A DNA stretch of 61,320 nucleotides, filler included, from 3 parts of 3 records of this genome joined end to end with filler, not necessarily neighbours in it, one strand, 5' to 3'. Shown: positions 30 through 39,677, counted from the first letter of the whole stretch. A program made the numbers and translations. Notes: generated by a model from the sequence alone, not told the origin.

Positions 30-1273
30 GTTGCACATCCCCATCGTCAGAAAATTCCATCACTTGATCAACATCACTTGCATCACTGAACTGAACATCA
101 TCATCCCCGCACTCCCCTAATATTACACCTTTAGACTCCAAGCATAAAGATCACACAATACCCAAATTCATACCCATCTCAGCGCCTGAATCGCTTTCAG
201 CACCAAATCCAAAGTCATCCACAAACTCATCAGCGGACCCTTCGTCATCCTCTTCATCCTCTTCATCCTCTCCATCCTCTCCATCCTCGTCATCCTCGTC
301 ACCCTCATCATCGCTATCTCCAAGTTGTAATTCATCATCTTCATCGGATTCGCTCTCTTCTCCAAGCCCAAAGTCTGCATATGCGGTCAGCCTCAGACCC
401 GATATGTCCACCAGTCACACCATGTACACACCATCGACGTCGTCATCGTCATCGCTTTCTTCTTGCGGGGCTTCGTAAGAGGCCTCACCTCCCCTCTTTT
501 TTTTCTTGCTGAACTTCTCCTCGACATAGTTGAGCAAGTCGTCGAGTCCATCTTCATTCTTGCCCTTCTTCTTGTTCATCCCCTAGAATACACCCGCATC
601 TTAACGCCACATCATCGCTGCAAAAGCGCACCACACATACCAGCTTCTTCTCATAATACGCGACCATCTCATCATCGTCGTCCTCTTCCCTCATGTACTT
701 ACTTGGGATCTTCGGCTTCTCAGTTTTCTTACCTAAGATCAGCTACATCAATCTTACTGAACACTAATCACTCACTTTCTCTGGCTTTTCCACTTTTGAT
801 TTCTTAACAGCGCGAGCATCACTCCCTTCGTCAGCTTGGCGCCGCTTCTTGGACTTCCCTACATGTACTGTAAGCACAGAAGCTAAACCTATGAAGCGCC
901 CAAGGCATACCAGTCTTCTCCGGGGGTGGGGGTGGGTTCTTCATTTTCTTAATATGTTGCTCCTACTCCAAGTCAGTCGCAGTCAAGACCCACCCAGGCC
1001 ACACAAACCTGCTTTTTCTTCTTGACCTCCTGCTTTTGTTGTTTCCGCTTATCTTTTCTTGTAAGTACCTTCTTCCCTTTGCGCTTCTTCCCCACACCTA
1101 GTATGAATGTCAGCTCAAATCTCAAACAAAGCGCTCCTCGCAGGTTTACCGTCTCCGTCATTTCCAAGCTCATCTCTCAGCGCAGCGGGCAGGTCAGTTG
1201 TTTTCGACTTTTTCGTGCGACCGCCAAGTCCAGCCCTGCCTCCCCGTGCACCTCCACGCCCGCCCCTATTCAT
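1..1273 (-). CDS. Nucleolar MIF4G-domain protein NOM1/Sgd1-like, 5' part, multi-exon; runs off the window start
   Basis: Spliced translation gives MNRGGRGGARGG...TTDLPAALRDELG|GVGKKRKGKKVLTRKDKRKQQKQE...EEDDDEMVAYYEKKL|GMNKKKGKNEDGLDDLL, then long D/E tracts. These motifs resemble the Sgd1/NOM1 N-terminus. GT-AG intron at ~1099-1149. The MIF4G domain itself is outside the window. Confidence 0.6.
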
Positions 1274-1720
1274 GACCGCACAGTTCCTTATCAGGTGAAG
1301 CCTCATCACTGAGAAATATATACCCACAGTCAGTCCAGCACGCGGAAAGAGGGCCAGGCCTTTGCGCCGCTGTGAATGGGCGGTCTCGATGGCCAATAGG
1401 GCTACGGACGTCAGGGTGTTGCTCAGCCCGGTGGTGTCGGGCCGTGTGTGGGGGCTCATTAGCCATTCATCCACCGTGACGTGACCTGACTACGTCTAAC
1501 TGGCTGAAAGGCCTGTGATTATAATATCGTCCAATTTGTGGAATCATAGTGGGCCCTCCTCGAGTTCTTGGATCTGCGTGGTGTTAGCAAACCGGTCCGG
1601 CCTACGTACGGCCGCCGTGCCTCCTTGATCAGCAAGTGATGACAGTCATGACCCCCGACTGGACCCGCTCCTGAGGGCAATGATCGCGACTGATGAGTGA
1701 TCGGCGAACGACAGGGTGCC

Positions 1721-1750
1721 CCACAACCACTTCAGCCACAACCACTTCAG
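1721..1750. repeat. 15-bp tandem duplication (CCACAACCACTTCAG x2) in a divergent promoter region
   Basis: Two exact copies seen directly. Confidence 0.9.
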
Positions 1751-1935
1751 GTGGCCGGTCAGTCAGGCGGCCGGTCGAGAAAAACCGACCCAGTTTCGCC
1801 TCCCTCACGGGTCAGAGGCAACACGCCCGCAAATGAATAGTTCATACTATGACCTAAAGCCTCCGAACTGATCACCGTATGTATTGGTGACCTTCCTCAA
1901 CTTGAGAGTTGTAGCAAGAAACTCTACCGGTCAAG

Positions 1936-3868
1936 ATGAGCTACGAACCCCTTATCCAACCCAATCAGATTGGCCAAGGTTCGCCTGCGTACCCTGGCGC
2001 AGTAGTGCCGCCGCCTGCTGCAGCCGGACCCCCACCCACTGCAGCCGGACCCCCACCCTCAGGGAAGAGAAGCACTCCATATGAAGGGGACGAAGGCAGA
2101 CTAGAAGGTAGCGCCTTTGCTTCTTGAATAGGAGTATACCTAAAACTTTATGTAGACATTGACCTGCCTGCGTTCCCCATTGCCGATGCCCCACCCCCTT
2201 CGCAAATGCCGTCGCATGTGCACTTATCGGTATGTTGAAAACTTTGCGTAGAAATGTATGCGATCTGTTGTGCTTACTTGGGATATCAAGCCTCAAGACC
2301 AGCTTCAAAAGGCTATCGAACAAACAAGTCCAGAGGAAGCCATCAAAGGTGCAGTGCTGTCCTTGTGCTCATTGAAGTTACTGCTGACCGTCACATTCAG
2401 CCTATGATGCCTTCTTGCAGAAAAAGTTTTTTGCAAAGCATGGCCTGGGTCCTACAATGGTAAGTTAGCCAACGTTTATTTCTCCTGTGTTTCTATATTT
2501 AGAAATCATTCCGAGTGTAGGTCATTGACAGTTTCAATCCATCCATTGCGTATCATGTCTCTGTCCGGAGCTTTACGGAGACCCGCTCGCATCAGCATAA
2601 GCACCGACCATGGTCGGGTACTGCGGTGGATGGCCCCCAGTACGGCGCTCCTCCCGGCATGTGGGTGATGGTCCCCCGTGAGTTTGCCGCATTTTTGCTG
2701 GCGGACTGTTCTAACAAGTGTGGACTCCAGGTGCACCCACCATGTTCCAACCATCCTCGGTGATAATGAAGGTCCCACACACCGAGGAGGTCCGAAAATG
2801 TTTCAAGTGCCGGGGAAGGGGTAAAGCACAACAGTCCCTCAGGTGCCGCATTTAGGCTGAACACGAACTCTAACAGGAGAACTTCGCTGCACCTCGTGTA
2901 GGGGTTGGGGCACAGTGGACTGCTTTTCATGCCGGAATGGATGGGTTACTGAATATGTTACAACTTCTGATGGTGAGCGGAAGTAAGTTGCAGTCGGATG
3001 TGCATGATTAGTATGCTCACAAGAACCTCCCCAGGGAGGAGAGACGGAGGTGTTTTCATTGCAACGGACGCGGCGAAACGAGGTGTACATGGTGCCACGG
3101 GTACGGCTACAAAACTTGCTCAACCTGCGATGGATTGAGAAGTCTGGTCCATTGGATCGATCTTCATGTTGACTGGAAGAATGAAATAGCTCAGAAGGGT
3201 ATTTTACGTAGTTATTGTGAATGTGTTAAGTTGAGCTCACTGTGCATTTGCGCAGTGCATGAGGAGCAAGCGGAAGGAAATAAGCAGCTCCCCGAGGCCT
3301 GTATCAAGTGTATGTAATTGCCATTGGCATGGCTACTGAGCTGATGACGTCGTGCAGCGGGGTCGAAGGTAACGCTTTGGCAAGAGGATGCCTATATCAT
3401 TGAAGAAAGACCCGACCGCATGAATCCGATCGTAAATCCCATGGCGAACTCATGCATTGCTCAGATGCGCCAGTTCACCACGAATACAACCAGTGAGTGT
3501 TCTTGCAAGTGTTAAGAGGGAATCTAAAAGAGTTTCACCAGGCCGCATGCTGCTTGCCCAACGACTGATGATTGAAGGCATTCCCGTTTACGAAGTACTC
3601 TACAAGATCGGAAATAAGGAATATCAGTTCTGGGTATGTTTGACTCTGCTAACCGATGTGTGCCGCTACCCCAATCTAACTACGCTGTCGCCAGCTTTAC
3701 GGGCAGCATGGAGCTACCAAAGTTTATGCCCATAACTATCCTAAGAATATGCTCAAGGTTTCCTGTTGCTGGTTCTTCTGTGTTCTCCTGATTCTCTTAG
3801 TTATTTTGGGAATCATTGTTGGAGTTATTGCCATGTGGTTCCCGCATGTATGGAATCAATTGTGGTAA
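1936..3868 (+). CDS. SSUH2-like protein (DnaJ-type CxxCxGxG zinc motifs) with C-terminal TM helix, multi-exon
   Basis: Exon fragments read FTETRSHQHKHRPWSGTAVDGPQYGAPPGMW, MKVPHTEEVRKCFKCRGRG, LVHWIDLHVDWKN, RMLLAQRLMIEGIPVYEVLYKIGNKEYQFW and VYAHNYP. They follow the SSUH2 motif order. Pro-rich N-terminus; TAA at 3866-3868. Confidence 0.75.
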
Positions 3869-3928
3869 CCAATTCAAATCGGATATATATAAATATGGTG
3901 GAACAGCCCCTTTACCACTGAGATGACT

Positions 3929-5108
3929 CTAGTCCGCCTTTCTGCGACCAGCACGTCCATGCTTCTTGGTACCACTAGATTTAAAGGTTCTAGTCAGGGC
4001 TAGATATTGCATGAATGCCCCAACCAAACAACAGATGCAAAGGTAGACATGCCCTATCCCAAACACCGTTATAGCCTCCCTTGTCTCATCAGTGAAGAGC
4101 TTCATGGTCCCAGCCTTCCGGCATGCGTCTAGTAGAGCCATTTCCCGTGGCTCCACGTGGAGGATATAGCCTGGTCCGGCAACTAGCAATAGCAGCAATA
4201 CTGGGTTTGCACAATATATTAGTTCACAGTTCAACATTATCTTCCAGCAACCACTCACCGAATACATCAATAGGGCTTCTTTCCTTGTACACCCGATACC
4301 CCACGATTCCAAGGGTGCCCAAGATCACCCCGGGAACAACCAAAGTGTGAATAAACCCGTCGACATGAATTGTATTATTCACCACCGCCTGGTACCCATA
4401 AGTCCGGTGGTACGGATTAAGTATTGCGGGCAAGTCAAATATGCAGTTCTGTTGCTACCGAGTCAGAGAATGCCACCGTATAGTCTACACGGCGCCACCC
4501 ACTTGAAGGTTTAGGCCAAATGCAAGGCCCAACGGAATGATCTCGGGCCGCTTCAACTTCTTGGACATCAGCGTGCTCAGCAGAACCGATCCAAAAACGA
4601 AAAATACACTCAGTCTGCGCGGATACATAGTCTCAAAGTGTTCCATAGCCTTCGAACCGGGGTGCGTTCCAATCGCAACCCACGTTCCGGGCCACACGTT
4701 GTTGTAGAAGTTGAAAAGACCGACACAATACGCTGCAGGATACGGTAAGTGCTGTTTTGGTTGCCTGGACTTGGTACCCACCAACCAAATTACACAGAGC
4801 CGAGAAGCGGCCATTTCCGAGCAAAAGACTTTCCAGAGACGAAAAGAAGACCACTGCGCCAGTGAAAATGCGAAGTCCATGGGCAATGAAAAACTTAATT
4901 GCACCTGGTCAGAGTCCTATTAGAAGTTCAATAGAAGTGAATGGCTTAGCACAATACCCCGATAAAAATAACCAGCATTCTGCGCTGCAAGGTCCATCTC
5001 CACGACTTCTTTTCCTTTGGTTTGGAGCACATATTGGTCAGTGCTTATTTCCAAAAGGAAAAAGCCCAGCAAAGTGGACAGCAGGAAAACATCAAAGTGC
5101 TGTCCCAT
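3929..5108 (-). CDS. Multi-pass membrane protein, apparently two tandem 4-TM units (Shr3-like pattern), multi-exon
   Basis: ATG at 5108 (MGQHFDVFLLSTLLGFFLL). Hydrophobic exon fragments are joined by ~50-nt GT-AG introns. Basic C-tail GRRKAD*. Confidence 0.55.
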
Positions 5109-5179
5109 TCCGTCGTGTGGTGAACCACTCTTCAAACGTTTCAAAATCTGAGAAGTACTTCACACCAGTGAATATAAGA

Positions 5180-5700
5180 CAGCTGGCGGCGGCGGGGCTC
5201 CGGCCACGCCGGCGCGCCGCGGCTCGCATGACGGTGAGCCGTCCCAGGTTACTCACTTACCTTACCTGCGAGTTCGGTTTGATGAGTGGCGGTGCCCCGG
5301 TGGGGCCGGGCGCCGCCGCCGCCCCGGCCCGCGGCGCCGGCGGCGCGCGGCCGCGGCCGGGCCGGGCCGCGCCGCGCCGCGCCGCCGCTCGCAGGCTATG
5401 CCGGTCCCGTCCCCCCGGCCCCGGTCCGGTGCCGGCGCCGCCCCGCACGGCCCGACTCGGCGACGGACCCGGACGTCGGGTCAGGTCGGTCAGTCCGGCT
5501 CAGATGCATGGCCACTGAACTCAGCCTGCCGGGGCAGTCGGTCCCGTCCCGCTCAGCTGCGTCCCGGGGGGGGCGCCCGGCCGGGGCGGCCGGGACGGCG
5601 GCGGCCGGGACAGGGCCGGCGCCCGCGGGCCGCCCGGTACAGTACGGAGCAGCGGCATTCATGATTCGTTCGCCAGCAAGCATGCCATCAGTGACCTCGC
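5180..5700. promoter_or_regulatory. Extreme GC island in the divergent intergenic region (putative bidirectional promoter)
   Basis: 87-nt run containing only G/C at 5302-5388; lies between ATGs at 5108(-) and 5799(+). Confidence 0.6.
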
Positions 5701-5798
5701 CTTTGAAGGAGGTATGAAACACTACTTGTAACTGTATGTGTGATATGTGTTAATTTGCCAAAGCTCTACGGCAGTACGCTTAGGTTTTTTTTCCAACC

Positions 5799-7333
5799 AT
5801 GAGCGCAGAATCCGAAAAGTTTTTGAGTGAGGAGTTTGAAGAGGTGAAAAAGTCTATTCCTCCTTCCTCTTTAGAGAGCTGCACTCGTAGGATGTTTCGT
5901 TGTAATGTCCAGTATGTTTGGTTGCAGCATCTATTTTCATTTGCTGATTGCGATTGAATAGAAAAACCCCAGCCAAAGAAGCAACGATGATATTGCAGTT
6001 TCCGTTTGAGTATCCTGAAGACTGCCTAATAGTGGAGCTGAAGAGCAAGGTGCTACCCCATGACTTGATGAATAAGCTAAGCAAAGCTTGCGACGCAGAG
6101 GCTTGTGAACACTCCAAATCTCATGCCCGATCGATGCTAAACTGCGGTCGTGTAGGTCAAAAAGCATAAGTGCAAGGCTCAAATTATGGCAGTTTTTAAC
6201 CTGGTGAAGAAATTCATTGAGTCCAATATGTTCTTGCCATGTTTTGAGGACATCCGCTTGCTAAAAGAGAAAGTCCCTGATGTATGGGTTGTCCTCGTGC
6301 AGAAGTGATGTCTGTACCAACATACTTGCAGGCGAAGTTCAACGAGTCCAAGGGAACGATATCAATGAAGCTAGTGGAAGGGAACTATTTTGTTTCTGCC
6401 GTACTGACTGTTCCTGATAAATATCCGGCTCAAGCAGTTGCCGTGGACATTAAGGATTCTAATTTCGGCGACAAAATGGTTCAGGTGTTGACCGCCCACT
6501 CTCGGGAGATAGCGAGGCGCTGTGTCGAAAGAACATCGACCTTGCAAGCGGGAGGTGCCAGTGCCAGCAAGAAAAAGGAAAAGGCTCCTGACATTTCTGT
6601 GAAGAGTATGTATTTGCTGATGGATATCGATTTTCGTTTGACTTAAAGACTCTTGAAGCTGTTCACCAGGTTCGCTACGACAACCAGTTCTTGAAGCAAG
6701 CCGCTGCAGTTGAAGGTCGCATGAAGCGCCGCGTTTTGAAGAAGGAGGGCGCACGGATGCGAGAAGCAGAGAACGGTGCCGACGAGGACGATAACTTTGA
6801 GGCCGCGCCTAGCCTTTTGCCTACGTTTGAGTATATGCATGACAGTTTCGCGATGAAGCTCCCAAAGGACTTGTGCCCAGCGTGCTCTCTGTCCGTTATG
6901 AACAAGGAGCCGAAGGAGCGTATGTATTCCTTGCAGTCTTTGAAAAGGCTTTGGCTAATTATTTTGTCTGGTCAGATCTGAAGTCACTCCAAAAGGATAA
7001 GAACATTGAGCGGGCAACGTGCGGTCATTGGTACCACTACGAATGCCTGGACAAACTTCTTAGCGAGCCTCCCTTTGACAAACTGTGCACGTATCCTGGA
7101 TGCACGAGGAAGCTTCAACATCACAAATGGACGGGGGACGACAAGAAGCTCGAGAAGCGATGGGCGATGCAACAGGTATGGTGACCATAGGCTTATATAT
7201 TTGGTGTGCTCATAATCAGGCACAGGCTGCTCATAGGGAGCTTGGTGACGTGGTAGACTTTCTGGGAGTTCCGGACGAATTTGTCAGACCTGAAGATGAG
7301 AGGAACAAGCTGCCAGGATATGGCAACAGCTAA
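5799..7333 (+). CDS. RWD/UBC-like domain protein with C-terminal RING-like zinc finger (putative E3 ligase), multi-exon
   Basis: LQFPFEYP and LTVPDKYP are two RWD-like YP motifs. CPAC...CGHWYHYECL...CTYPGC is a RING-like ligand set, followed by RWAMQQ...RELGDVVDFL. ~50-nt introns. Confidence 0.65.
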
Positions 7334-7602
7334 GTCATATCGATGTGAAAACCTTCGAAAGATCATGGACACCGCGTGGAGAGCTACATCGCTGCTACAG
7401 TCAAGAAGATGGGACCCCCCGCCCAGCTCAACCCGTAAATCACACCAACGCTCCTCTTTACTCATTGCTTAGAGCAGCGCTTCTCCCTTGAACAGTACTA
7501 TTGAGAATGCCTCGCCAACTAGCAAATTCTTCCAGAAACACCTTTCCCCAAACTTGGCCAGACAATCTTCAAGAGCGAAGTTCCCTACTTCAGCAAAACG
7601 CT

Positions 7603-8562
7603 TCAGTTCCGCAGCAATTTTTTGGGTGTTGCCGATGGCGTGTCTGGCATAACGGACACAGTTGCTGTCGGAACCACTGGGCTGTTCTTGCCGCTATCGT
7701 TTCCAGGAGCAGCAGGCTGAGAAGCCGAGAAGGCAACGGGCGCAGCGACAACAGCAGCTGGAACAGCCTTGGTTCGCGAGTCGTTAACCTGTGGTGTCAC
7801 AGTAGCAGTGGCAGCAGCAGCCGGGGCGGCAGAGAGGGCCACGGCAGCAGGATCCGAACTCGCTTGCGCAGCAGGCTGTGCCTGAGGCGCCTGGCCTTCC
7901 AAGGTAACTGGCTGATCCCCCCATCCGCCAGTCTTCGTGTGCTCCTTAACCCATTTCTCATGCTCCTCCTTCTTCTGAGCCTGCAAAGCCACATACCGTG
8001 CCTGCGCTTCTTTCACCTGCTTAGCAGCCTCGGCGACGCTAAGGGGCTTCTTCACACCCACTGCAGATGGCTCCGCCAGTTCGGGGGAAGGAGTAGCCTT
8101 CTTTGGCTCGAACTCATCAACGGCATGACTCTCAGCTTTGTGCAGGGTATCTTCGCTCTGTGTAATAGCTGTGCTGTACTTACTCTGCTCACCTGCCAGG
8201 TCGTTCTCTGCCTCTTTAAGTGAAGCTAGATCGGCCTTCAGCTTGTCTTCCCGGCGTGTGATACGCTGCTTGATCAGCCCTTCCACAGAACCCTCATCAA
8301 GTTGTGCCTTTTGGAGAGCAATATCGGCAACTGTTGCCGGATGTTGGTCCTGACGCTCCTCACTCGCGCTAATGGCACCATTCAGACTGGTTTCGGCATC
8401 TTGGGCAAGCTTCTCGGCCTTTGCAGCCTCGGCATGAGACGTTTCACGAGACCGCTCAAGATCAGCAGCAAACTCACTGGTGGTATCAGCCGGTGATGGT
8501 GCCGCCTCGGCAACCACCACGGCGAGAACAGACACCACACCAACCAGCAGTGTGGTCCGCAT
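7603..8562 (-). CDS. Secreted Ala/Glu-rich coiled-coil protein, single exon, unknown function
   Basis: 319-aa ORF with N-terminal signal peptide MRTTLLVGVVSVLAVVVAEA, heptad-rich middle and Pro/Ala/Thr tail. Confidence 0.7.
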   Translation of the reverse strand: MRTTLLVGVVSVLAVVVAEAAPSPADTTSEFAADLERSRETSHAEAAKAEKLAQDAETSLNGAISASEERQDQHPATVADIALQKAQLDEGSVEGLIKQRITRREDKLKADLASLKEAENDLAGEQSKYSTAITQSEDTLHKAESHAVDEFEPKKATPSPELAEPSAVGVKKPLSVAEAAKQVKEAQARYVALQAQKKEEHEKWVKEHTKTGGWGDQPVTLEGQAPQAQPAAQASSDPAAVALSAAPAAAATATVTPQVNDSRTKAVPAAVVAAPVAFSASQPAAPGNDSGKNSPVVPTATVSVMPDTPSATPKKLLRN

Positions 8563-8769
8563 GGCACTTCGTCGTAGCTGACAACGGCGATGTCAGACCA
8601 GCTATATTTGTAGTGTGCTGATCCAGAGGCCTGCCGGCCACCTCCACACAAGAAAACCAGAGTTTTGTCGCAACCAGGATGGGTAAAGGTGGGCCATGGC
8701 CCTTCGCTGTGCTCGCGTCGCCTTTGCCTGGCTTTTGCTCACCAGCCAACCCGTGGTCGCCTCAGTCCA

Positions 8770-9330
8770 ATCCGGTGCCCGGGCAGCTGGCCGAGGGCGG
8801 CCGGCCACTGGGCCGGCGTCGGCGCTTGGACCCCTCCGGGTCATCACTGGCCGAGCCGGCCGGCGCGGCGCGCCAAGGGCCCTTGCCCTACGCTAATATA
8901 CACTATATCGAGATTATCCATTATATAGATGGGAAGGAGCCCTCCGGCCTCCACCAGACTTCCAGTCCCGCCTGCTTGGAAGAAAGTCCCTTTTCCCGAC
9001 AGGCTGACTAGCCGGCTGCCCAGCGGGATCACAACTGATCTCCACGACTCCGCCCATCGCTGCGAGGGCCACTGACTGGCTGTGCCACTGAGCACTGTGA
9101 GGTGGGCGGTCGGCCGCGGGGGCCGCGGCGGTTGGATCCCTCATCGACCACGGCGAGCGACGGGTGCCACCAAGGAGTCGAGGACGTTCTCGGGCCTTGC
9201 GAGCTTGATCGCTTGAGCTGGCCCGGTCGGTGCCCCACGCGCGGCCCTGACGAGGTGCCCGGCCTGCCGCGCTCGCTCGCTCGCCCGTCCCAAAAACGGC
9301 TTGCCAAGCACAGGCCGCCGGCTCACTGGC
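8770..9330. promoter_or_regulatory. GC island(s) in the divergent intergenic region
   Basis: GC-rich blocks at 8770-8880 and 9100-9330 flank an AT-rich TATA-like patch (~8893-8928), between ATGs at 8562(-) and 9509(+). Confidence 0.5.
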
Positions 9331-9508
9331 AGGCAAACTGGCTCTTGCAAGGTTCAGTCTGTCTCACTGCAGTCTGGTTTGGCAACGCTGTTCCGGGAGC
9401 TCTCGCACTGACTGATCTGATAACTTTTCCAGAGAGAGCCCGCGTTCTCGTTTAGTTTCCCTTTCATATATGTTGAAAAGTTCATGTTGAAGGAAAACTA
9501 CCTAGAAT

Positions 9509-11389
<1,881 letters not shown>

Positions 11390-11511
11390 CTAGTGCAGGA
11401 AAGGCGCACATCGATTCGCTCGCGGCTCTAAGCGAGAGACGCGCTTTCACGCCGTCCTATATGCGCCCTCTATAAAGTGTTAGATTCATCATATGAGCTA
11501 GCCGGAGAACG

Positions 11512-26720: not shown

Positions 26721-27085
26721 ACCCTACGCCAACCGTTAAATCAGAATTCATCGCTATAAAAGGAGTGAAACGGAACTTCGGAAATTGCAATTCCGTTATT
26801 ATTGCTAATTTCAAGTGACCGCAAACTCCACTCTGGGACGCTAGCCCGAATCGTCGTCAGCACTGGCCCGTCGTCCCTTCAGCAGTCGGTTCGCCATCAG
26901 GAGCCCCGACACATCATTACCACTGCGGCACGTTACTGTCAGCAAGGGACAAGCAGGGATGATTCGGCCTTCTCCCATGAGTCCTGTCGTGAGCGAATGA
27001 GTCATGGGCACATGGGCCCTCCAGCGACCCCATCCAACGAAATCCAACGCGCAAACTTTCTAACACATGATTTATTCGGGAAAAA

Positions 27086-28921: not shown

Positions 28922-29643
28922 ATGGGTAAGTGTGGTTTTGTGTATTGGGATTAGGTTAAGAGGCTGTGCCCGTGGGTGAGCTAGTTGAGTGTGACGGGAA
29001 CGGGTGGGTCGGGGTGGGGGTTGATTGTTGACGTCATTGGATGACTGGCTCTGACTCTGGCTTTTTAGGCATTCTCGAACAGATCAAGCTCACCCCGATG
29101 ACCATCGGTAACGGCGAAGCGGTCAAGCAGGACAAGAGGGCGAAGGAGCTCGAGGAGGAGCTGATCCTCCCCGCCGTGTGGGATTTGAGCAAGGTCCCCC
29201 TTACCCCCATGTGGCCCCTTCTTGAGGTACACGAGGGCTCCGAGCAGACTCCCATCTGCCTCGATCTCTGCAAGACCGTGACCCAGATTTGCGTACTCCT
29301 TTTCGATATCATCCTCATCATCATGTACCCCTTCATCGTGATCTACCACGAGGCCGTCAACTTGTAAGTATCAATAATGCCCTTAACAAGCCCCGCCTTA
29401 CAATCGTACAGCGTGACCAACTTGACGTACTATTTCTTGATTTTCCCCTTCAACTTCGTCTTGAACTACTATTTCTACCCCTTGTTCGATGTTGTCCACC
29501 GTTTCTATGTGCCCACCATGTCCTTCATTGTCTGGGTGCTCCGTCCAATCCTCGCCATCTTTGCCGAGGTCGCCACCGCCTTCGGCCATGCCATTCACCC
29601 CTGCGTTGTTGGTGTTTCCCGCATCATTAAGGGCAAGTATTAG
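28922..29643 (+). CDS. Caveolin-like amphipathic membrane protein, paralog B (176 aa), 3 exons
   Basis: Exons 28922-28925, 29069-29363 and 29412-29643 splice in frame. Aligns by eye with paralog A over most of its length. Confidence 0.6.
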
Positions 29644-29796: not shown

Positions 29797-31248
29797 TCAG
29801 GGAAGAGAATACAAAGCAATATTCTTGCCCTCAAATGGCAGCACCACCCTAACAGCGCTTTGGCCTTGTCTGTCTGTAATCTCGGTAAGGTATGTTAGAT
29901 ATTCCTCATAAGAATGGACGGGAGAGCCGTCTTGGAGCCGGCGGTGCGGGTTCTCTGATGAGAATACACAGCATGGCACGACCGCGAATGGCTTCTGGCG
30001 GGCTAAGGCCGTCACGACAAGAGGCTCGGTGGCCTCATCGGGGTGCATCCCGACCACCAAACCACATGTCTCTAGCAAAGCCTTCTCGCCTTCGTCAATT
30101 TCACCAAAGGATTCGTCAAAATATTTCATACACTGCGGGATAGACTTGACCAAGGACGACTCGCCCACATCACCATCTTCCCTTGCTGATACCCCGACTC
30201 CATTCTTGTTCGCTCTGCGCTTCTCTTTGGCAGCTCGCTTCAGAGCCTTGTGCTGCCGGGCATTCAACTTGACAGGACGCGGGTCCACAACAGTGCTCGG
30301 GTATCCCTTTCGGATAAGTTCCCATGACACCTCTCCGCGCCCTCCCGCAATGTCGAGCACGCCCCGCCTCAAGACATCCACCCCAAATGTTTCCTCCAGC
30401 CATTCCACAAACACCAATGCCCGACTGCAGTGGCCCTTCATATCCGTATAGCGCTCTTTCTTCTGCTCACGGCGGCGGACCACAAGTGCATGGCACAGAG
30501 CCTGTCGCGTTGTGGCAGTCTCCGCCGGAATCATGTGGGAATACGAGCATCCAACCTTTTCACAAGTGCCTGAGTTCAACCACAGCTTGCATAACCCAAG
30601 CCGAGCAACCATCTCTTCCGGTCCCTCGTTCTCAGGCGGTGGCATCACTCCGGCCTCCTCGGTGCCCGTCGCACCATTAGAGTCTGCTTCTGAAGGGGCG
30701 CCAGGTTCCTCGGTGTGATGGACGCGCGTGGCTGATGGGGGCTTGTACGACATACCTGATTCAAATCGAATGCCAGGGCGGTCCGCCTTCCATCGGGAGA
30801 CAATCTCTACCTCCTCGGGCTGGCAGCGAATGCCCACTCCGTGACTTAGCACCTCAACTACTCCTCCAACCACCACGACATCTCCGCACTTTATCAGCTT
30901 CGAGACCTTGGAGAAGGTGTTGTGCTGTTCCGCTTCAGTGCACCGCATGCACACATGAACTAGCATAGGCTCGGAAGCAGGGCGGGGGAGGATCGATGTA
31001 TGTCCATTGCTCGTTACACCAAGATCAATGTCGAAGAAAAATATGCTACGCGTGGTGCGCGTATTCCGGCGAACTACCTGCCCTCGGACTCCGGTCACTC
31101 CGGTTTGCGCTGTTGTGCTTGTAGCGGAGCGGCGTTCGGCTTCACAAAGTCTGGCAATTGTGCGATACATAGACAGGTTATCGACGTAATCCGAAAAGTC
31201 AAGGTTGACCGGGCTAGGGGACGGCGCTTGGCTATTGTCACTCATCAT
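29797..31248 (-). CDS. OB-fold + CCCH zinc finger + class I SAM methyltransferase protein, single exon
   Basis: VRGQVVRR...IFFFDI (OB-like), CKLWLNSGTCEKVGCSYSH (C3H1), VLDIAGGRGEVS, GMHPDEATE and PFAVVPCCVF. First ATG at 31248. Confidence 0.8.
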   Translation of the reverse strand: MMSDNSQAPSPSPVNLDFSDYVDNLSMYRTIARLCEAERRSATSTTAQTGVTGVRGQVVRRNTRTTRSIFFFDIDLGVTSNGHTSILPRPASEPMLVHVCMRCTEAEQHNTFSKVSKLIKCGDVVVVGGVVEVLSHGVGIRCQPEEVEIVSRWKADRPGIRFESGMSYKPPSATRVHHTEEPGAPSEADSNGATGTEEAGVMPPPENEGPEEMVARLGLCKLWLNSGTCEKVGCSYSHMIPAETATTRQALCHALVVRRREQKKERYTDMKGHCSRALVFVEWLEETFGVDVLRRGVLDIAGGRGEVSWELIRKGYPSTVVDPRPVKLNARQHKALKRAAKEKRRANKNGVGVSAREDGDVGESSLVKSIPQCMKYFDESFGEIDEGEKALLETCGLVVGMHPDEATEPLVVTALARQKPFAVVPCCVFSSENPHRRLQDGSPVHSYEEYLTYLTEITDRQGQSAVRVVLPFEGKNIALYSLP

Positions 31249-31379: not shown

Positions 31380-32310
31380 GAACTCTGGGCGGCCGCCCCC
31401 GGCCCGCGGCGTCCGAGGGGCCGCGGGCCGCCGACTGGGCGAGGGCCGGGCGGCGGTCCGAGGGTGACCCGGACTGACCGGACCGTTGGCGGCCGTCCAG
31501 TCCGGACTCCCGGCCCCCGCGGGCCGGGCCGGGCCGCGGCCGGCCCGGGCCGGCGCGACCTGCAGTGACCGGACCGGACCGGGACCGGCGGGTGGGAGCC
31601 GGGGCCCCCGGGGCCCGGGCCGGCCGGGCCGCCCGGCGGCCGGGTCCGCCGGGTCCGGTCCGTCCGGTCCGGGCTGGTCAGGCTGAGGGTCGGGTCACAG
31701 TCAGTCACCCGGCTCGGGGCGGTGCGGCGGGTCAGTCACGGGGCCCGGCCGGGCCGGGGCGCCCCGGCGGCGCGGCGCCGGGCGGGGCCGCCCGGGCCCG
31801 CCCGCGGGCCCGCGGCTGGGCCCGGCCGGAGCACCGACCTGCCACTCACTCCGGCTCACTGGCCACCCCGGCGCCGGCGCCGGGCGGCGTGCCCGGGTCG
31901 CCCCGTCCCGGTCGTGACCGGACTGACTGTCACGGGCACCGCCGGGCACCCGCCGGCCGTCCGCGTCAGCCAGACTCCGCCAGTCAGTCAGTCATGCCTG
32001 AGTGCGGATGACTGAGCCGGAGTGCCGGTCCGGAGCCCCGCGGTCCCAGGCACGGTGGCGGCGGGCGGCCGGTGCCCCGGGACCGCGGAGCCCTCAGCGC
32101 CCGCCGACTCCGCGACGTGTCGTAGCGGTCCCGTCGACTCAAACGTCCATGGCAGGCCACCCTGCCACGGAAACACGCTGCCGGCGGCCTCGCCGGAGGT
32201 CGCTAGTGGCGCAGGCGGGGGCGGGAGGGGCCGTTCGCCCGGTGAGGTGTGACGGTGCATGTGCCCAGTCGGCCGGCCGTGGTTGCCGGCCACGGAGCCT
32301 CCGGCTCACA
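31380..32310. promoter_or_regulatory. Largest GC island (~900 nt) in the divergent intergenic region
   Basis: 78-nt pure G/C run at 31739-31816 and repeated GTCAGTCA/TGACTGA words; between ATGs at 31248(-) and 32419(+). Confidence 0.6.
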
Positions 32311-32418: not shown

Positions 32419-34912
32419 ATGGAGGACAGTCATCAGGTGGCTGACCAAGCCCCTGCGCAAGGTGGGGGGTTACCTTCGATGGCGCCGCATACTTCTGGAC
32501 AGCAGGTATGTCCCGCGGAGCTGTATGCCTTGTTGAGAAACAGGGAGGAGGAGATCGAACGGCTGGTGGCTGAGAACACCACCCTGGTGAAGAAAATCTC
32601 CGAGCTGCAGTCACAATCCAAGGTCTCCGGCTTCGGTCTCCCTCCATCGCCTACCGGCCGGCCTTCGGAACCTCTGCACATCACTCTTGCTCACTTGGGG
32701 ATGGGTGGGGTGAGTGAGCGCGAAGGCCAGCTCAGCCGAACCGCGTCTCCCGACAGCTTCTTTGGGGATGTGATGGAACCACCATTGTCCCCGCACACGA
32801 TACAGGACGCCGCCCAGAGCGCCCGGCTCTTCTTCTCAGTGGCCCAGGAGCTAGGCTCGGCCGGGCGGACGCACCGGTCCTCCGCGGACTCCGGGGGGGC
32901 AGACGATGATCTCCCGACTGGACGCAGTGAGCGGGAGCATGATGAACACTGTGATGTATCGCCGGGGTGCAACGAGCTGGCGGACATGGATGAGAGAATG
33001 TTTGTGCGCGTGTGTGATCACCTTGACCTCGGGCTGTCCAAGACTGAGACCATCCGCCTGTTTGGTCACGTTGACAAGGAGGGACACGGCCGTCTCACGC
33101 TGAAACGCATGCGCGCGGCGCTGCCCCGCGTCCCGCTCTTGCGCGCTGCGATGTCGCGATACAGATGTCGCAAGCGATGGAGCATATCCGCAGGTGAGTT
33201 ATGTCGCGTGTTTGCCGGGAGCCCTTGTCTTATTTATGATGGTGCCCACGTTAGAGTATCGCTATGACGCATCAACTTCATTCAACTACAAGCACCCTAA
33301 ATACCAGGCAGCCATCCGGGGCCATGACGGCACGTCGGATTTGCTGAGTCCAGAGAGGATTCACCATGAAGATATACATGGCCCGTTAGTGGGAGAGTAC
33401 AGGGACATCCGCAAGAACCTTGACTACAGTTATCATGTGAATTACACTGAAGAAAGGCAGCTCTGGCAGGACAATGTGGTGCGTGGAGTTGCTGTTCGTC
33501 ATACGGCGGTGCCTAGACCGTGGATTGTGTTCACGGCAGGGGCCATGGGGTCGGGCAAGGGATTTGTCATGAGGTGGCTATCGGCACACGGGATGTTCCC
33601 ACTGGAGGTGATTGCCAAGATTGATCCGGACGAGTTCAAGGCGATGTTACCGGAGTGGGCGGGGTATGTCAAGAGGGACAATGAGGAGAACAAGACCGAG
33701 GCCGGCACGCTGTGCCACCGGGAGAGCGGGTTCCTCGTAGAGGTGGCGCAGGAGGTCAGTTTGAGAGCCAGTCAGAACATTTGGGTCGATGGGTCCTTGC
33801 AAGATTTCGAGTGGTACTCGTCGACATTCAAAGACATCAGGCAGAGGTATCCGCATTACCGCCTGGCGGTGTTTTATGTTCATTGTAGCGCCGAGAAGGT
33901 TGTGATGCGCGCTGAGAAACGTGCAAAACTAACAGGACGAAGCATTCCGGCCAGTATTCTGTCGCAGTCCATCGAGCGGACAAGGGAGTCCATCCTTCGG
34001 CTGGGCCCACTGGCGGATGTGCTGTGTGTGATCCGTAATGAGGGGAGCGTCCCTGCGCTCGAGTTGTTTGAGGACCGCACCGGATCCATGCGTGCTATCC
34101 TTGACAGATTTTCCGTCCACCCAGAGCCCCCGGCGTTCCCCAGGGCACTACGTCCCATGGTCTTGGAAGAGGTGAAGTTTGGGGATGTGACCATTGCGGC
34201 CCAGTCAGTGAATATCCGACTGAGCCGCGCCGTTTGCTCTGCCCTTAGCACCGAAATGGGGCCGAAGCTACTTAGATTTTCGCTTGTGGAGGCGTTTGGA
34301 GACAACCAAAAGGAAGTTTCCGATGCCCTTCGACGACATGGCATTGATGGCAAGGAATACGATCTCGTGTTCAGCCCTTCGTCTCAGAATCACATGGACT
34401 ACCTTTCCGGAAGAGTCGCCGGGATTCCATCGGATGTAGAGCGGTTCGCCTGGTGTTTTGGGGCTGTGAGGAAGGACGGGTCACGCTTTGGGCAGTCTCC
34501 GGAAACCCGGCGCACAGTTGAGGCATGGAGACGATGGTGCGGCGATAGCAATCCTATCGATATGCTCATGATGAGTGGAGGGTTTATATATGTTGGCAAT
34601 GGTGCTGGGGAGCCGGAAGTTCTGTGCATCAACACATTCTCCCAGAGGCCCACTGGCGCTGGATGCACCGTCCGTGCGATACACTTTGCGCCGCCTATGA
34701 AAGTCCCTGCATCCTTCGCGCGCCAGATCATCAAACACGGCCGCATGATGCCAACAACAAAACGGGAAATTCTGCGCGCAGGAATGGAGACATACACATG
34801 GATTCTCCCAAGTGAGCTGCCAGGATGTGCTCCATTCGGGGGCTTCATGGTAAGATCTGTATCGCTGCAAAATCTGCGCGCTGACCATATCTATCCAGTA
34901 TGCATACAATGA
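32419..34912 (+). CDS. Coiled-coil + EF-hand + zeta-toxin-like P-loop kinase, 2 exons
   Basis: EF-hand-like LFGHVDKEGHGRLTL. Intron at ~33194-33254. Zeta-toxin motifs PWIVFTAGAMGSGKG, IDPDEFK, HRESG, VDGSL and RAEKRAKLTGR. Confidence 0.8.
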
Positions 34913-34995: not shown

Positions 34996-35721
34996 TTACA
35001 CGGAATCCGCGCCTTCCTCTCTCATAAGTACATGGCCGCGCCTTCGCGACGGGAGGCGTTTCACCCCAGGCTTCTGAGTGGCCCTCTCAAGGGCTTTGTG
35101 CTCAAGGCGACTCAGCTCGCTCTCGTCAAAGGAAACTGGATCGGATCCCTGCGGCACAAGGACATTGGAGCCCTGGTCATCCCTCCTCGATAGCCTAGGA
35201 ACTTCTCCTAGTCTATTAATGACCCATTGCTCCCTTCTTGTGCATGGTAGCAGGTAACAACATAGCGACAAACAACAAGTCAGGCAGCAACCACCTGTCG
35301 AGAACCAGATCAGACCAATGTAGGAAATGCTGGCTGCAGCATGGCAGCCCTTCTCAGGAATCATAAGCATGTCGCATAAAGTGTCATCATCGGCAAGCCA
35401 CGTGAGGCCAAACAAAGTCGACATGAATACGAAAAACAAGCAGAACAAAAAGTGGATTCCACACATAGACACTATGAAACCTTCTTGAGTGTGGTGAAAG
35501 TTCTCCAGACATGAACGGGCGAAACAGTTGCTGATGGCCGCCTCCATTTCGACCTCTGTCTGGCAGTGGGGGCACTTAACCGTTGTCCTGGCCAGAGCCA
35601 TTTCTTCCACGCATTTCTTGTGATACGACGCCGCACACTCACAGGAGAGGGCGAAAAGTGGGTGCTGCGAAGTCGCTTCATCAAGGCAGACTATGCAAGT
35701 GGACACGGGAGTGCTTCCCAT
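34996..35721 (-). CDS. RINGv (MARCH-like) membrane E3 ubiquitin ligase
   Basis: CIVC...CEC....HKKC...CPHC (C4HC3) followed by two TM helices; 241-aa single ORF. Confidence 0.75.
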   Translation of the reverse strand: MGSTPVSTCIVCLDEATSQHPLFALSCECAASYHKKCVEEMALARTTVKCPHCQTEVEMEAAISNCFARSCLENFHHTQEGFIVSMCGIHFLFCLFFVFMSTLFGLTWLADDDTLCDMLMIPEKGCHAAASISYIGLIWFSTGGCCLTCCLSLCCYLLPCTRREQWVINRLGEVPRLSRRDDQGSNVLVPQGSDPVSFDESELSRLEHKALERATQKPGVKRLPSRRRGHVLMREEGADSV

Positions 35722-35929
35722 TTGCAGAGATATCTAACCGCAGGGCCATGGAATAAACTATATGTGCGCAAACTCCGTCGAGTACTTCAAGGTATTCTGG
35801 TGGCGGTTTATCAGGCAGCTACGGCACACGCGCTCTTGGCAAACCCGCGCCCGGATCAACGGACCGAGTGCGATAGGGCCCGCTGGTTCTCCAAAGGGAT
35901 GCAGGGCCGGGACTTGGAGGGTCGTACGG

Positions 35930-36170
35930 TGGGTCGCGCGCTGGCCCTGCAAGCTGGCGCCGGCGCCGGCCCGCCGCCCCGGCACCCCGCCCGGCATGGA
36001 TATGATGGTTCAGCGCCGGCCGGGCGGCCGCGCCGGCCGCGCCGGCCGCGGCCGGCCAACGGGCGCCCAACCGGCCGACTGAGTCACTGGCAAACCGTGC
36101 ACTGACCCGGCCGCGCGCCGGGGGGCGCCCAGGCTCCTCAGCCTAGCCAGGGCCGGCGAGGCCACCGGTT
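35930..36170. promoter_or_regulatory. GC island in the divergent intergenic region
   Basis: 45-nt pure G/C run at 36013-36057 and TGAGTCA at ~36080. Confidence 0.55.
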
Positions 36171-36729
36171 GACCCGTGTCACCTGTGTCTCACGCCTGAC
36201 CTGTTTTTCCCCAAGTGGGAAGACTAAAAATCCGAAACATTGCATAGTAAATCTGAAACTTTCTTAATCAAAGTTTTGAGGATTAGAAACATTGATACGC
36301 GCCATGAGCCCTAAAGCCTACGTCACTGGCCGCCGCCGACGTCGTGCCTCCGCCCGGTGAGGACTACGTACTTCAGTCATGACGGCGTAGAGGGCCTTCT
36401 CGGCCTACGTTGCTCAGTGATAGCCAACGAGGAGGCTATCGTCGCTTGGCCGGTGGCGCACGGGTCAGCTGTGCTTGAAACCGGCCGGACCGAACTTGCA
36501 GCACCGAGCTGTCGGCCGACACAGTCCCGGCTGTGCTGCTTGCAATATGCCAACGGTGGGGAATGAGCGTGGAGACTGTAAGATGTTCAGTGCAGCACGG
36601 GAGCTCGAGCCCTGCCTCTGCCGGTCGTAACTAGCCTGATTGGCTGAGAACAAGACTTTTTATATATAACGATCAACACACATGCATGGAGGAGTTGTAT
36701 TCCCTCTCTAGTGTTTTACGGTGGTAGCC

Positions 36730-39677
36730 ATGAGGATGTCCGCCCTGCGGCTGTCGTGGCTATTATTGGCAACAATGTGTATAGGGCTTGCCAGTGCCCA
36801 TGGGCACCACGATGACCACGAACACCCTGTACAGCCTTCAACCATGGCTTACTTGGAGAGATTCCATCCGGAGTATATTCCCTGTGTGCGCTCGCACACG
36901 AAGCACTACGGAAGGAGGTATCAGGACCACCAGAAAATCATAAGCCATGCCATGAAAATGTGCTCTTATCTGCGTGGGGAGGCTATGAAAATGGGATTTC
37001 TCTCGGAAGAAGAGCTAGCGGGGGTCCACAATGGTTCTCCAAAGCCGTGCGTATCGGTCAATGACCCGGCTTGCTCGCAAAGTGAGTGGTGTTACGTGGC
37101 GAACGAAAGAGATACGTCTGGTCTGTGTCTGCCAAAGGAGATGTACAGCTGCATGAGCACTGTGGACTGCGCTTCCTTCAGCGCAACTGGTGGGCTTCGG
37201 TGGACATGCGAAAAGGAGTCTGAGGAGTTGCTCGGCCGCTGCCAGGAAAATTCCGCTGAAGGAGAGCTGGTTGATGAGAATTTGTCCATTGAACCCAATG
37301 GCAGCGTAAATCCCGGAAACCCTCCGAGCTATTCTTCTCCAACTGTTATGCTAGATGAGATGCCCTCTCATGTAGAGCCCATGACGGCGGAGGAGGCGGC
37401 AAAGTACCCCCCTTCCTCCACAACAAGGCGTCCTGGTGAGGTCAGTACCTGTGGCACCCATCACACGCACCACTCCTCCAGCTCGGAGTTTGACTTTGTG
37501 AAGGCTGATGGGAAGAATGCGGTGAGGAACGGGAGTTTCCGCGCTTGGGTAAACAGCGGCAAGGCGTCGGAGGAATCAGAGCTGAACGAACTTGGCTCGA
37601 AGGCGGCAGCAACGTGGGCTGTTTGTGGGAACGCCCTCTATGGGGATGTTGTCCAGTGCGACAACCCCATGGTGAGGAACAACTACAAGTTCGAGAAGGT
37701 GAACGCAAATGGGCAGTCCAACCAGGCGGATATGGTTGCAAAGATTGGATTTCATTACGTCATCCCTGTCATGACGTCGCAGACGGAAAGTTATGTTCGG
37801 AGCTGGGCAGACTACTTCCTCAAGATCACCCAAGGTCAGATTTATACTCTGAACAGTGACTATGCCCAGATGGGCATGCAGTTCTCGGCTGCCATCTACT
37901 ACTACCAGGACAATGATCTATTCAAGTCGCGTGTGGCGCAGTACCCCGATGGTGACGCTGCTTGCCAGCGTTGCTCTGATGTGAATAGATTCAATGCTAA
38001 TGAGTGTAAGTTTGTGGATTGCTGTTCACGTAACCTCATTCAAAAGAAAGCGTTGAATGAGAACTGGGGACATCATGAGAACTGCATATCTTTTGATCAG
38101 TACTATGAACGTATCAGTGGCGCTGCCAGCCTAGATCCCACCACGATGATGTCGGTCATGCAGGGTCGTTTCAACACATTCCCAGCCCACTTCGCCAACC
38201 CCGGTTTGCTCGGCTTTGCCTTCTTCCCCTGGGATGCGGATGGCATGCAAGGTGTGGTTGCAATGAATTTGAAGGTCACAGGCCCCAACCAGAAAACGCT
38301 TTCCCATGAGCTTGGACATGCGCTGGGCTTGCTACACACGGTGGGTGATATTGTTTTGGTCTTGATTGTGGCTGGTAACTAATATGCGTTTATAGTTTGC
38401 TGGAGTTGAGGAAGTGAGGTGCACCGCGAACTCTCAATGTACTGAAGATGTGGCCAGCAATGACAACGGTGATTTCTGCTCTGATACTGTCCCGGTTCCG
38501 CGATATTATGCCTGTGATACTCAGACTCAGCACCAAATCCTTCAACAGAGCAACTGCCGCGGCACGAAATTCCAGGGTCTCACAGACAACGATTATCGCA
38601 ACTACATGTCATATGTGTCTGATCAGTGCATGAGTGTGTTTACTCCCGACCAGAGTGGACGGGCTCGGTGCTACTTGAGCGCCAATCGCAAACTGAGGAA
38701 CAGCGTCATCTCCCAGCCGTCTGTCGGCGTCACGACCGGGGGTTCAAGATGTGACCGCAACAAATGCAAGAACGGTGGGCAACTAAACTCATCCGACTGC
38801 ACTTGTGCATGCACGCCGGCATGGAAGGGCGAGGTCTGCAATATTCCCAAGTGTGGGACTACCCAATGCAAGAACGGCGGGAAGCTCAATTACAATAACT
38901 GCAGCTGCCAATGTGTCGCTCCGTACTACGGACAGAATTGCGAGCTGCGCAAGCAGTCTCTTACAGCGTCAGAACACAGCAACTACATGCCCAGGTTGTC
39001 TCAGTCGTCTCAAGATTCTGGAAAACTGATCACAAACTGGGGATACACATCTGAGGCGATGGGATGCTTTTCTGGCGGTGAGCTTGATGATCGCAAACAG
39101 TTCTTGCCTATCATCATTACACCAGATGAGTTCAAGGCCACAAATGTGCATGGGACCACCCCTTCTTACTGCCACTATCGATGCCACCAAATGTCAAAGG
39201 CATACAACTACTTTGCTGTAGACATGGGTGGTGTCATGTGTTACTGCTCCACCATCATGCCGAAGACTCTGGCACTTGTCGAGGATACGGAGTGCAACAT
39301 GAGGTGCGCCGATGGTAACAGGTGCGGGTCCAACCATCTGAACAGCAGGTATGCTGTAAGATCAATGTACAAGGTACAGAGGGGGTCGGGAAGCGCGTCT
39401 TCTCAGCGCACCAGCAACTCTCGAACAGTTGCACCGGCTACTACCCACACGACCCATGCCTCTGGACAATCAGTCAAAAGCATAACCAACGGTCACATTG
39501 ATGACCACGGTGATATGGCGGAAGTGGAGTCGAAAGACTCCCCCACGTCGAATGCGACGCCTGCGCCAGCATCTACACCCGCAGCAACTCCTACCACCCC
39601 GGCGGTGTCTCAGCAGAACCAGCCTGCAGCTGCGGAGCAAGGCCAAGCCCCCAATGAAGACCCTCCTGTTGCCGCGC
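36730..39677 (+). CDS. Secreted pappalysin-family (M43B) zinc metalloprotease with EGF-like and WSC-like domains; 3' truncated
   Basis: Signal peptide, LLGFAFFPW, HELGHALGLLHT, DFCSDT.P and Met-turn NYMSY. Two CKNGG...C.C EGF repeats and a GCF...C...C...YFAV...CYC WSC pattern. Intron 38341-38396. Confidence 0.85.

Follow-up and report, generated by a model that had tools for sequence, protein, structure and literature searches.

GC-rich non-coding blocks upstream of TATA-type core promoters in a compact protist genome with near-strict strand alternation

The DNA described here (the window, a joined stretch of 61,320 nucleotides (nt), filler included) is divided by two N-linkers into three contigs, two of which are eukaryotic and carry 18 genes that switch strand almost from one gene to the next. 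The subject of this report is a set of non-coding blocks of very high G+C content (GC) that lie upstream of these genes, beyond AT-richer core promoters. The contigs are as follows.

1–17091: contig 1, eukaryotic, genes g1–g8
17192–39677: contig 2, eukaryotic, genes h1–h10
39778–61320: contig 3, bacterial

Introns of about 50–60 nt and gene bodies of 52% GC are common to contigs 1 and 2, and this common composition and intron style suggests that both belong to one organism. Their genes are listed with the evidence for each.

1–1273, minus strand: g1, acidic/basic low-complexity protein, 3′ end beyond the contig; gene-finder model and intron signals
1936–3868, plus strand: g2, spliced Cys-rich orphan; intron signals
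3929–5108, minus strand: g3, spliced membrane-type orphan; last exon ambiguous, with a stop near 3929 or 4089
5799–7333, plus strand: g4, RWD and RING protein; weak Pfam matches
7603–8562, minus strand: g5, single exon of 320 codons; gene finder
9509–11389, plus strand: g6, malic enzyme; Pfam and homologues
11512–13477, minus strand: g7, CorA-like Mg2+ transporter; Pfam
14084–16734, minus strand: g8, spliced coiled-coil-type gene; gene finder
17572–20932, plus strand: h1, long charged protein; complementary DNA (cDNA) 5′ end at 17558
20990–22682, minus strand: h2, membrane and ankyrin protein; cDNA 5′ end at 22715, five introns spliced in cDNA
24455–25486, plus strand: h3, tandem SCP2 sterol-carrier protein; Pfam, homologues and cDNA
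25676–26217, minus strand: h4, small membrane protein; cDNA 5′ end at about 26250
27086–28098, minus strand: h5, orphan protein; cDNA 5′ end at 28116
28922–29643, plus strand: h6, orphan protein; cDNA
29797–31248, minus strand: h7, CCCH zinc finger/methyltransferase-type protein; homologues
32419–34912, plus strand: h8, Zeta_toxin-family P-loop domain; cDNA contig start at 32405
34996–35721, minus strand: h9, RING and membrane protein; gene finder, cDNA contig end at 35754
36730–39677, plus strand: h10, secreted M43-like metallopeptidase with EGF repeats, 3′ end beyond the contig

The in-house gene finder recovered 15 of the 18 genes, missing g2, g3 and h4, and is the source of the strands of g1, g5, g8 and h9. 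Pfam matches or homologues in the right frame support the strands of g4 (weakly), g6, g7, h2, h3, h7, h8 and h10. The cDNA comes from two public runs of one sample, with contigs aligned to 17260–37200 of contig 2. Both runs are spliced cDNA, and the 15 joints listed, of 21 in all, are GT..AG on the expected strand; such joints place h2, h4 and h5 on the minus strand and h3 and h6 on the plus strand, and a 5′ adapter in the cDNA sets the strand of h1. The absence of cDNA cover on the blocks and on h10 was not counted as evidence, and depth was not used for ranking genes. The predicted last intron of h8 (34850–34898) is unspliced in the cDNA contig; it was removed from the gap table only, and the composition, word-bias, (CCGNN) and four-fold-site analyses still counted it. 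The strands of g2 and g3 follow from strand-specific intron signals alone (6 plus to 1 minus for g2, 0 to 3 for g3). Database searches returned no usable homologue of either gene, their single match being rejected as a chance match to repeat-derived sequence.

Along the contigs the genes are oriented −,+,−,+,−,+,−,− and +,−,+,−,−,+,−,+,−,+, respectively, exactly as an earlier note on this DNA had described, so that 14 of the 16 neighbours switch strand. Switching at this frequency is above chance by the binomial test (P = 0.002 against 0.5 and P = 0.027 against 0.62; Wilson 95% interval 0.64–0.97), and when g2 and g3 are left out 12 of 14 neighbours still switch (P about 0.007, calculated by hand). 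The junctions comprise 7 head-to-head, 7 tail-to-tail and 2 tandem arrangements. Tail-to-tail gaps measure 57–269 nt and head-to-head gaps 662–1772 nt, in agreement with the figures of that note (about 57–270 and 660–1770 nt); the g2/g3 value of 161 nt is a placeholder within 60–220 nt, depending on the choice of the last exon of g3. The tandem gaps are 606 and 868 nt long. Bidirectional promoters are conventionally recognized where divergent starts are less than about 1 kilobase (kb) apart, and the ATG-to-ATG distance is below 1 kb in 4 of the 7 divergent gaps. Strand alternation is a known trait of compact genomes and of brown algae (10.1101/2024.02.19.579948), not a vertebrate hallmark.

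The blocks, whose limits were judged visually on windows with a GC of 75% or more, and the two weak divergent gaps are as follows.

1274–1935: g1/g2 divergent gap, peak 64% GC, no strong block, same word bias as the blocks (z = 4.3)
5185–5640: GC block or blocks of the g3/g4 divergent gap, two close cores, 87-nt pure G/C run, longest (CCGNN)n tract (6 units)
8740–8885: GC block upstream of g5
9080–9340: GC block upstream of g6
13595–13830: GC block upstream of g7, in a tandem gap
16865–17090: GC block upstream of g8, within which contig 1 terminates
17213–17330: GC block upstream of h1, within which contig 2 begins, following a 21-nt C run
22980–23260: GC block upstream of h2
23900–24160: GC block upstream of h3, with a dip of 44–52% GC between the h2 and h3 blocks
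26360–26720: GC block upstream of h4, in a tandem gap, flanked by two outward-pointing TATA boxes
28099–28921: h5/h6 divergent gap, two weak blocks of 69–70% GC around a centre of 24–34% GC
31385–32300: fused GC block of h7/h8, about 900 nt, with the strongest word bias (lag-2 complement z = 11.1)
35860–36180: GC block upstream of h9, with a weaker h10 block beyond an AT dip

The 11 blocks amount to 3583 nt, or 9% of the eukaryotic DNA. Averaged over the 18 genes in 50-nt bins, GC is 44–49% in the 100 nt before the ATG, 62–73% at −100 to −400, with the peak of 73% at about −250, and 51–55% past the ATG; four ATG positions were 1–21 nt off in this profile and were corrected for the later window and TATA analyses. 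The best 100-nt GC between −450 and −100 is at least 69% in 16 of the 18 genes, while a GC of 70% is attained by only 4 of 75 windows in gene bodies (Mann-Whitney P = 3e-10, a value to be read with the caveat that genes sharing a short gap do not count as independent). Pure G/C runs of 87 nt (5302–5388), 78 nt (31739–31816), 45 nt (36013–36057) and 41 nt (23157–23197) are present where the earlier note had placed them, together with further runs of 49 and 47 nt; the longest such run in any gene body is 11 nt, and the independent-base expectation for one of 41 nt is 3e-7. Equally borne out are the weakness of the gaps at 1273–1936 and 28098–28922 (best 100-nt GC 67% and 72%) and the presence of a separate block at each tandem exception. 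Tail-to-tail gaps average 48% GC and have no blocks at their junctions. The blocks are non-coding, mark gene 5′ regions and never stand at tail-to-tail junctions. Some of their edges are abrupt (from 38 to 85%, 37 to 77% and 48 to 90% GC across 60 nt), while 3 of the 7 edges checked are softer.

The arrangement of the blocks varies with the gap. Two GC humps with a dip between them occupy the g5/g6, h2/h3, h5/h6 and h9/h10 gaps, the dip being shallow in g5/g6 and deep in the other three. Thus, two separate blocks are found in 4 of the 7 divergent gaps, fused blocks in 2 (g3/g4 and h7/h8) and no strong block in 1. Since long divergent gaps hold separate blocks and tandem genes have blocks of their own, the arrangement favours a module that belongs to a single gene. 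The simplest reading is one GC module per gene, placed back to back, with sharing possible where blocks fuse.

Between each block and its gene is a core promoter of a more conventional kind. A TATA-like word occurs at −70 to −40 from the ATG in 14 of the 18 genes, where shuffled sequences give a mean of 2.1 and none of 1000 reaches 14; between −300 and −100 such a word is found in only 2 of the 18. The two boxes around the h4 block illustrate the placement.

26269–26276, minus strand: TATA box of h4, at the usual 40–70 nt before the ATG
26755–26762, plus strand: second, canonical TATA box across the block from h4, directed away from h4 into the 300 nt that precede the end of h5

The second box may start a short or non-coding plus-strand transcript, which would make the h4 tandem exception a divergent pair; in 26785–27070 beyond it no gene was identified, no Rfam match was found and folding is unremarkable (z = +1.0). 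Outward TATA boxes on both sides of this block weigh against a purely one-way module. The six cDNA 5′ ends lie 14–33 nt before the ATG, in DNA of 39–53% GC. Those at 17558, 22715, 26250 and 28116 carry loose letters, which we take to be template-switch adapter, and those at 32405 and 35754 are contig ends. The nearest 50-mer with 70% GC or more starts 67–229 nt further upstream in all six.

The blocks have a distinctive word composition. Bases two positions apart tend to be complementary (lag-2 complementarity), with z = 15.3 in the blocks, −0.1 in introns and −3.4 in tail-to-tail gaps; this bias is also absent from the core promoters and present in the weak g1/g2 gap. It superseded a purine/pyrimidine RRYY period, rejected as a label for the same bias. 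Relative to expectation, T-N-A occurs 2.17 times, A-N-T 1.93, C-N-G 1.26 and G-N-C 1.23 times in the blocks, and the corresponding values for T-N-A and A-N-T are 1.02 and 0.90 in the bacterial contig and 0.96 and 0.66 in nine high-GC loci. Favoured words are CCG/CGG, GGC/GCC, TCA/TGA and ACT/AGT; G runs and alternating CG are disfavoured, with CGCG and GCGC below expectation (z = −3.3 and −4.1). Dinucleotides are otherwise near expectation, apart from TA steps at 0.55. Tracts of at least three (CCGNN) units number 10 where 3.7 are expected, a count reached by 3 of 200 shuffles, and the longest has 6 units; a spacing of 9–10 nt recurs for CCG and GGCC (z = 2.7–5.1). A G-quadruplex or Z-DNA design was rejected on the depletion of G runs and alternating CG words, a loose G-quadruplex pattern being present in 4 of the 11 blocks. 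Hidden coding was rejected as well: long open reading frames (ORFs) crossing the blocks gave no Pfam match, among 121 ORFs of at least 68 amino acids searched on contig 1 and 106 of the 115 of at least 84 on contig 2 (9 inside h1 were omitted), and the recurrence of the same base at lag 3 is negative (z = −2.7). At the gathering score no Rfam match was found in 1–39677, and three gaps gave none even when E values up to 1 were admitted. When the first 300 nt of each block are folded, only two of the 11 do better than shuffles (z = −2.2 and −4.6), the other 9 having z above −2.

This composition is shared without homology. No 18-mer is common to any two of the 11 upstream regions. With A/T fixed and G/C regenerated from block word statistics, the mean best pairwise score over 55 pairs is 35.7 observed against 35.5 for the null, and the single best pair is equalled by 1/40 and 4/40 null sets. 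Since the similarity between blocks is that of regenerated sequences, they are not a repeat family, one of the possibilities on which the earlier note had said its reading would founder. One recurring word is the palindrome TCASTGA, of which there are 10 copies in 9278 nt upstream of genes and 4 in 30299 nt elsewhere, compared with 0 and 12 for TCAWTGA (Fisher P = 2e-4). It is a candidate factor site that fails multiple-testing correction.

1306, 5688, 17361, 17378, 17402, 24153, 24395, 28490, 32374, 36414: TCASTGA sites upstream of genes

The papers listed for this word deal mainly with nuclear receptors and AP-1.

The earlier note took these features for a CpG-island-like bidirectional promoter system. 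The part of this description that holds is the presence of non-coding blocks, unrelated to one another as repeats, that mark gene 5′ regions; the resemblance to CpG islands is not supported in the defining respects that were tested. The islands are indeed dense in CpG, as that note said, with no selectivity for this dinucleotide: the CpG observed/expected ratio (o/e) of individual blocks is 0.66–1.13, and they are CpG-dense only because they are G+C-dense. Head-to-head gaps have a CpG o/e of 1.00 against a GpC o/e of 1.02, and the gene bodies are only mildly depleted (0.79). The ratio is about 0.75 in trimmed introns (57 observed, 75.8 expected, 38 introns) and 0.98 in tail-to-tail gaps, which total only 994 nt. 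Strong genome-wide CpG depletion with selective retention of CpG is thus not what is found. The classical thresholds for a CpG island are a length of at least 200 nt, GC above 50% and CpG o/e above 0.6. The larger blocks pass them, but so do 287 of 522 gene-body windows, and the thresholds therefore do not discriminate. Nor does the island cover the transcript start and exon 1, all six cDNA ends being 67–229 nt downstream of the block. Vertebrate CpG-island promoters are mostly TATA-less, whereas 14 of the 18 cores here have a TATA-like word. The GC skew of the blocks is −0.011, i.e. none. On the features tested, the blocks are outside the CpG-island class.

The proposal that we favour, and which could about equally well prove right or wrong, is that each gene has a GC-rich upstream element that keeps promoter chromatin open beside a conventional TATA core. 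Each promoter would consist of two parts. The first is an AT-richer core of about 100 nt, with the TATA-like element 40–70 nt and the transcript start 14–33 nt before the ATG. Directly upstream is the non-coding block, 150–450 nt of 70–100% GC made up of CCG/CGG, GGC/GCC, TCA/TGA and ACT/AGT words, which would serve as the upstream activating region. Its CCG-rich, TA-poor and stiff DNA may disfavour nucleosomes, or may recruit a GC-reading factor or remodeller, and in either case the block would play the part of the poly(dA:dT) tracts of yeast. Genes may alternate because two blocks pack back to back and 3′ ends meet in 60–270 nt, an order that would also keep transcripts from running into the next promoter block. 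Where blocks touch, as in g3/g4 and h7/h8, they probably form one shared open region.

A bolder version of this proposal, tentative and on the doubtful side, is that this lineage opens promoters throughout its genome by a GC code independent of methylation, in which blocks of base-any-complement words exclude nucleosomes and fire from both edges. Gene order would have been selected to use nearly every edge, hence the near-strict alternation, and promoters of this kind would add a third design to those of yeast poly(dA:dT) and vertebrate CpG islands. The outward TATA box at 26755 means that even the apparent tandem exception at h4 may be divergent.

Several observations weigh against the proposed opening of chromatin by the blocks. 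Moderately GC-rich DNA usually favours nucleosomes in vitro, and the (CCGNN) tracts are short, at 3–6 units; PMC1173084 states that tracts of 2–5 units had not been examined for nucleosome exclusion. Function is read from position and composition alone, in a small sample of 18 genes in 39.6 kb of eukaryotic DNA. The peaks of g1 and g2 are only 64% GC, which is in the gene-body range, and those of h5, h6 and h10 only 69–70%. Since h5 and h6 are transcribed and spliced despite their weak blocks, a strong block is not required. Four of the 18 genes are without a TATA-like word. The C-N-G half of the word bias is also present in bacterial coding DNA (1.20). Adapter is found at only 4 of the 6 cDNA ends, and all six belong to contigs assembled from a single sample. 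The h4 end falls on an ATGG of the genome and strand invasion may have produced it; for these reasons the cDNA ends suggest rather than map the starts.

Other origins for the blocks have to be set against a chromatin-opening element. They might be a by-product of GC-biased gene conversion at recombination hotspots in open promoter chromatin, marks that the promoters themselves would not require. Up to 87 nt in succession without A or T, and CpG and GpC at equal levels, are what a strong context-blind push towards GC would leave, and vertebrate 5′ GC peaks do track recombination at transcript starts (10.1101/2024.03.12.584636). However, the vertebrate peak described in that source slopes into the first exon and ORF, a slope that is absent here: GC at four-fold sites is flat from the ATG onwards (0.56, 0.51, 0.57, 0.52 and 0.55 per 250-nt bin in 13 genes; overall 0.51–0.61). 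Several block edges are sharp, and conversion alone makes no prediction that the leftover A and T should stand in T-N-A and A-N-T words, so that we regard this origin as unlikely. The reading of the earlier note, in which the blocks are unmethylated islands that escape 5-methylcytosine decay in a CpG-methylated genome and act as CpG-island promoters, is improbable. It accords with the CpG o/e of head-to-head gaps relative to gene bodies and introns, and with the precedent of Amoebidium, which has gene-body methylation with low promoter methylation (PMC11244446). Yet CpG depletion elsewhere is mild, and nil in the tail-to-tail gaps, and protection of CpG cannot lift GC from 52% to 80–100%; the uncovered transcript starts, the TATA-type cores, the lack of GC skew and the depletion of CGCG and GCGC also speak against it.

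If the blocks were instead dense, degenerate arrays of sites for a few sequence-specific factors, such as CCG-type readers and a TCASTGA-binding protein, and did not themselves affect nucleosomes, the enrichment of TCASTGA but not TCAWTGA upstream of genes would be accounted for. That enrichment shrinks on inspection: trinucleotide-preserving shuffles already expect 3.6 copies and 2 of 300 reach 10, and the word, picked post hoc, is third of 128 palindrome classes with a P of 0.005 that is lost on correction. Since no long word is shared between any two upstream regions either, we consider site arrays very unlikely. Least credible of all, and highly improbable, is that the blocks are members of a dispersed repeat or transposon family, or that sequencing or assembly created them. 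Blocks do align with one another at up to 80% over 66 nt, the end of contig 1 and the start of contig 2 are inside blocks, which indicates that sequencing struggles there, and the cDNA runs do not check the block sequence itself. Nevertheless, block similarity is at the null level and the blocks keep a constant position with respect to genes of confirmed splicing. Block-rich head-to-head junctions would be lost at least as often as others by assembly breaks, so breakage would not be expected to yield 7 head-to-head against 2 tandem junctions. The 21 C at 17192–17212 with which contig 2 starts are probably a read-end artefact where sequencing failed in the GC block.

Other features of the window and of the samples searched deserve a brief description. 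The divergent genes h5 and h6 (27086–29643) are spliced orphans with hydrophobic C-terminal halves and an AT-rich centre to their gap; by cDNA, their first introns are unusually long (102 and 143 nt). Gene h8, which is spliced and eukaryotic, encodes a Zeta_toxin-family P-loop domain (E 7e-20), preceded by a region that on visual inspection resembles an EF-hand. A cDNA contig at 33491–35754 covers the 3′ part of h8 and the whole of h9 with no gap, which fits convergent genes with overlapping 3′ ends; a single transcript is not thereby shown. The malic enzyme exon of g6 has no identity above 71% among the 120 matches listed, and h7 is 33–35% identical to oomycete proteins and 46% identical, over about half its length, to an unnamed protein. 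A 44-nt sequence is present twice (86% identity, E 1e-7), at 4415–4458 inside g3 and at 13978–14021 in the g7/g8 tandem gap, where it is on the plus strand in the sense of g3, just past a small GC sub-block and a good splice donor. Its flanks are not alignable and it has no Rfam match; it may derive from duplication of part of an exon or represent a small RNA. The bacterial contig (39778–61320) has the appearance of a siderophore cluster. It carries the last part of a peptide synthetase, with carrier, condensation-family and thioesterase domains, a TonB receptor, FecCD, a binding protein and a TauD dioxygenase; next come prs, a GHMP kinase, a TPR protein, hemA and tRNA-Gln.

A metagenome scan with a motif pattern that has a single match in the window gave at least 115 stretches, and the block profile appears in none of the 115 listed. 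Of 131 loci compared in all, none is homologous to the window. With only the listed matches covered, these negatives are no evidence of absence. Patches of moderate GC with CCGG, GGCC and CAGT words in low-GC surroundings were seen in three probably eukaryotic loci (L089:600–1400, L095:1500–2000 and L046:600–1000); they were chosen by the motif pattern itself and are a lead only. Two motif scans of viral contigs gave 9 and 7 matches, and the 9 inspected are unrelated to the window.

What appears to be new here is a compact protist with near-strict alternation, whose blocks of 70–100% GC are outside the transcript, upstream of TATA cores. If the blocks open chromatin by sequence alone, they would be a GC counterpart of the yeast poly(dA:dT) tracts. 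They would also offer a natural system that separates methylation protection, gene conversion and selection for open chromatin, which are confounded in the promoter GC peaks of vertebrates. The blocks appear to break short-read assemblies, as at the end of contig 1 and the start of contig 2, and may help to explain fragmented genomes. No protist with this promoter layout was found among the papers listed, from which most subscription papers are absent, so that the layout can be called novel only with reservation. Alternating strands and promoters marked by GC are both familiar; their combination here departs from the known form.

Each of the known systems shares some features with the window and lacks others. 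Like the vertebrate CpG islands and 5′ GC peak (10.1101/2024.03.12.584636), the blocks form a local 5′ GC peak with CpG near expectation inside and lower in gene bodies, and divergent pairs are placed around the peak. Unlike that peak as the available text describes it, the peak here is wholly upstream, stops before an AT-richer TATA core and has no gradient into the ORF and no skew; unlike CpG islands, the blocks reach 100% GC in a background that is barely depleted of CpG. In brown algae, including Ectocarpus, adjacent genes are likewise on opposite strands in over half of cases (10.1101/2024.02.19.579948), although the fraction there is somewhat above 60% and here it is 14 of 16 (interval 64–97%). 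Divergent gaps there are shorter than tandem ones, whereas here they are 662–1772 nt against 606 and 868 nt, with only two tandem gaps to compare. Divergent pairs of Ectocarpus less than about 600 nt apart share a nucleosome-depleted region and their expression is uncorrelated (10.1101/2020.03.09.980763); the available parts of these two sources (10.1101/2024.02.19.579948, 10.1101/2020.03.09.980763) make no mention of GC blocks. Amoebidium appalachense (PMC11244446) is, like the present organism, a protist in which promoters and gene bodies differ in the treatment of CpG. The difference there is a methylation pattern in a transposon-rich genome, for which the available text describes no extreme GC blocks, whereas here it is read from sequence alone. 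Finally, (CCGNN)n has been described as excluding nucleosomes, increasingly so with length (PMC1173084). Unlike those elements, the tracts of the window are short and degenerate and stand within a broader bias towards x-N-complement words, and nucleosome exclusion is for them a supposition; like (CCGNN)n and yeast poly(dA:dT) (PMC1173084), the blocks are low-complexity, non-homologous DNA upstream of a core, with short (CCGNN)n tracts above chance.

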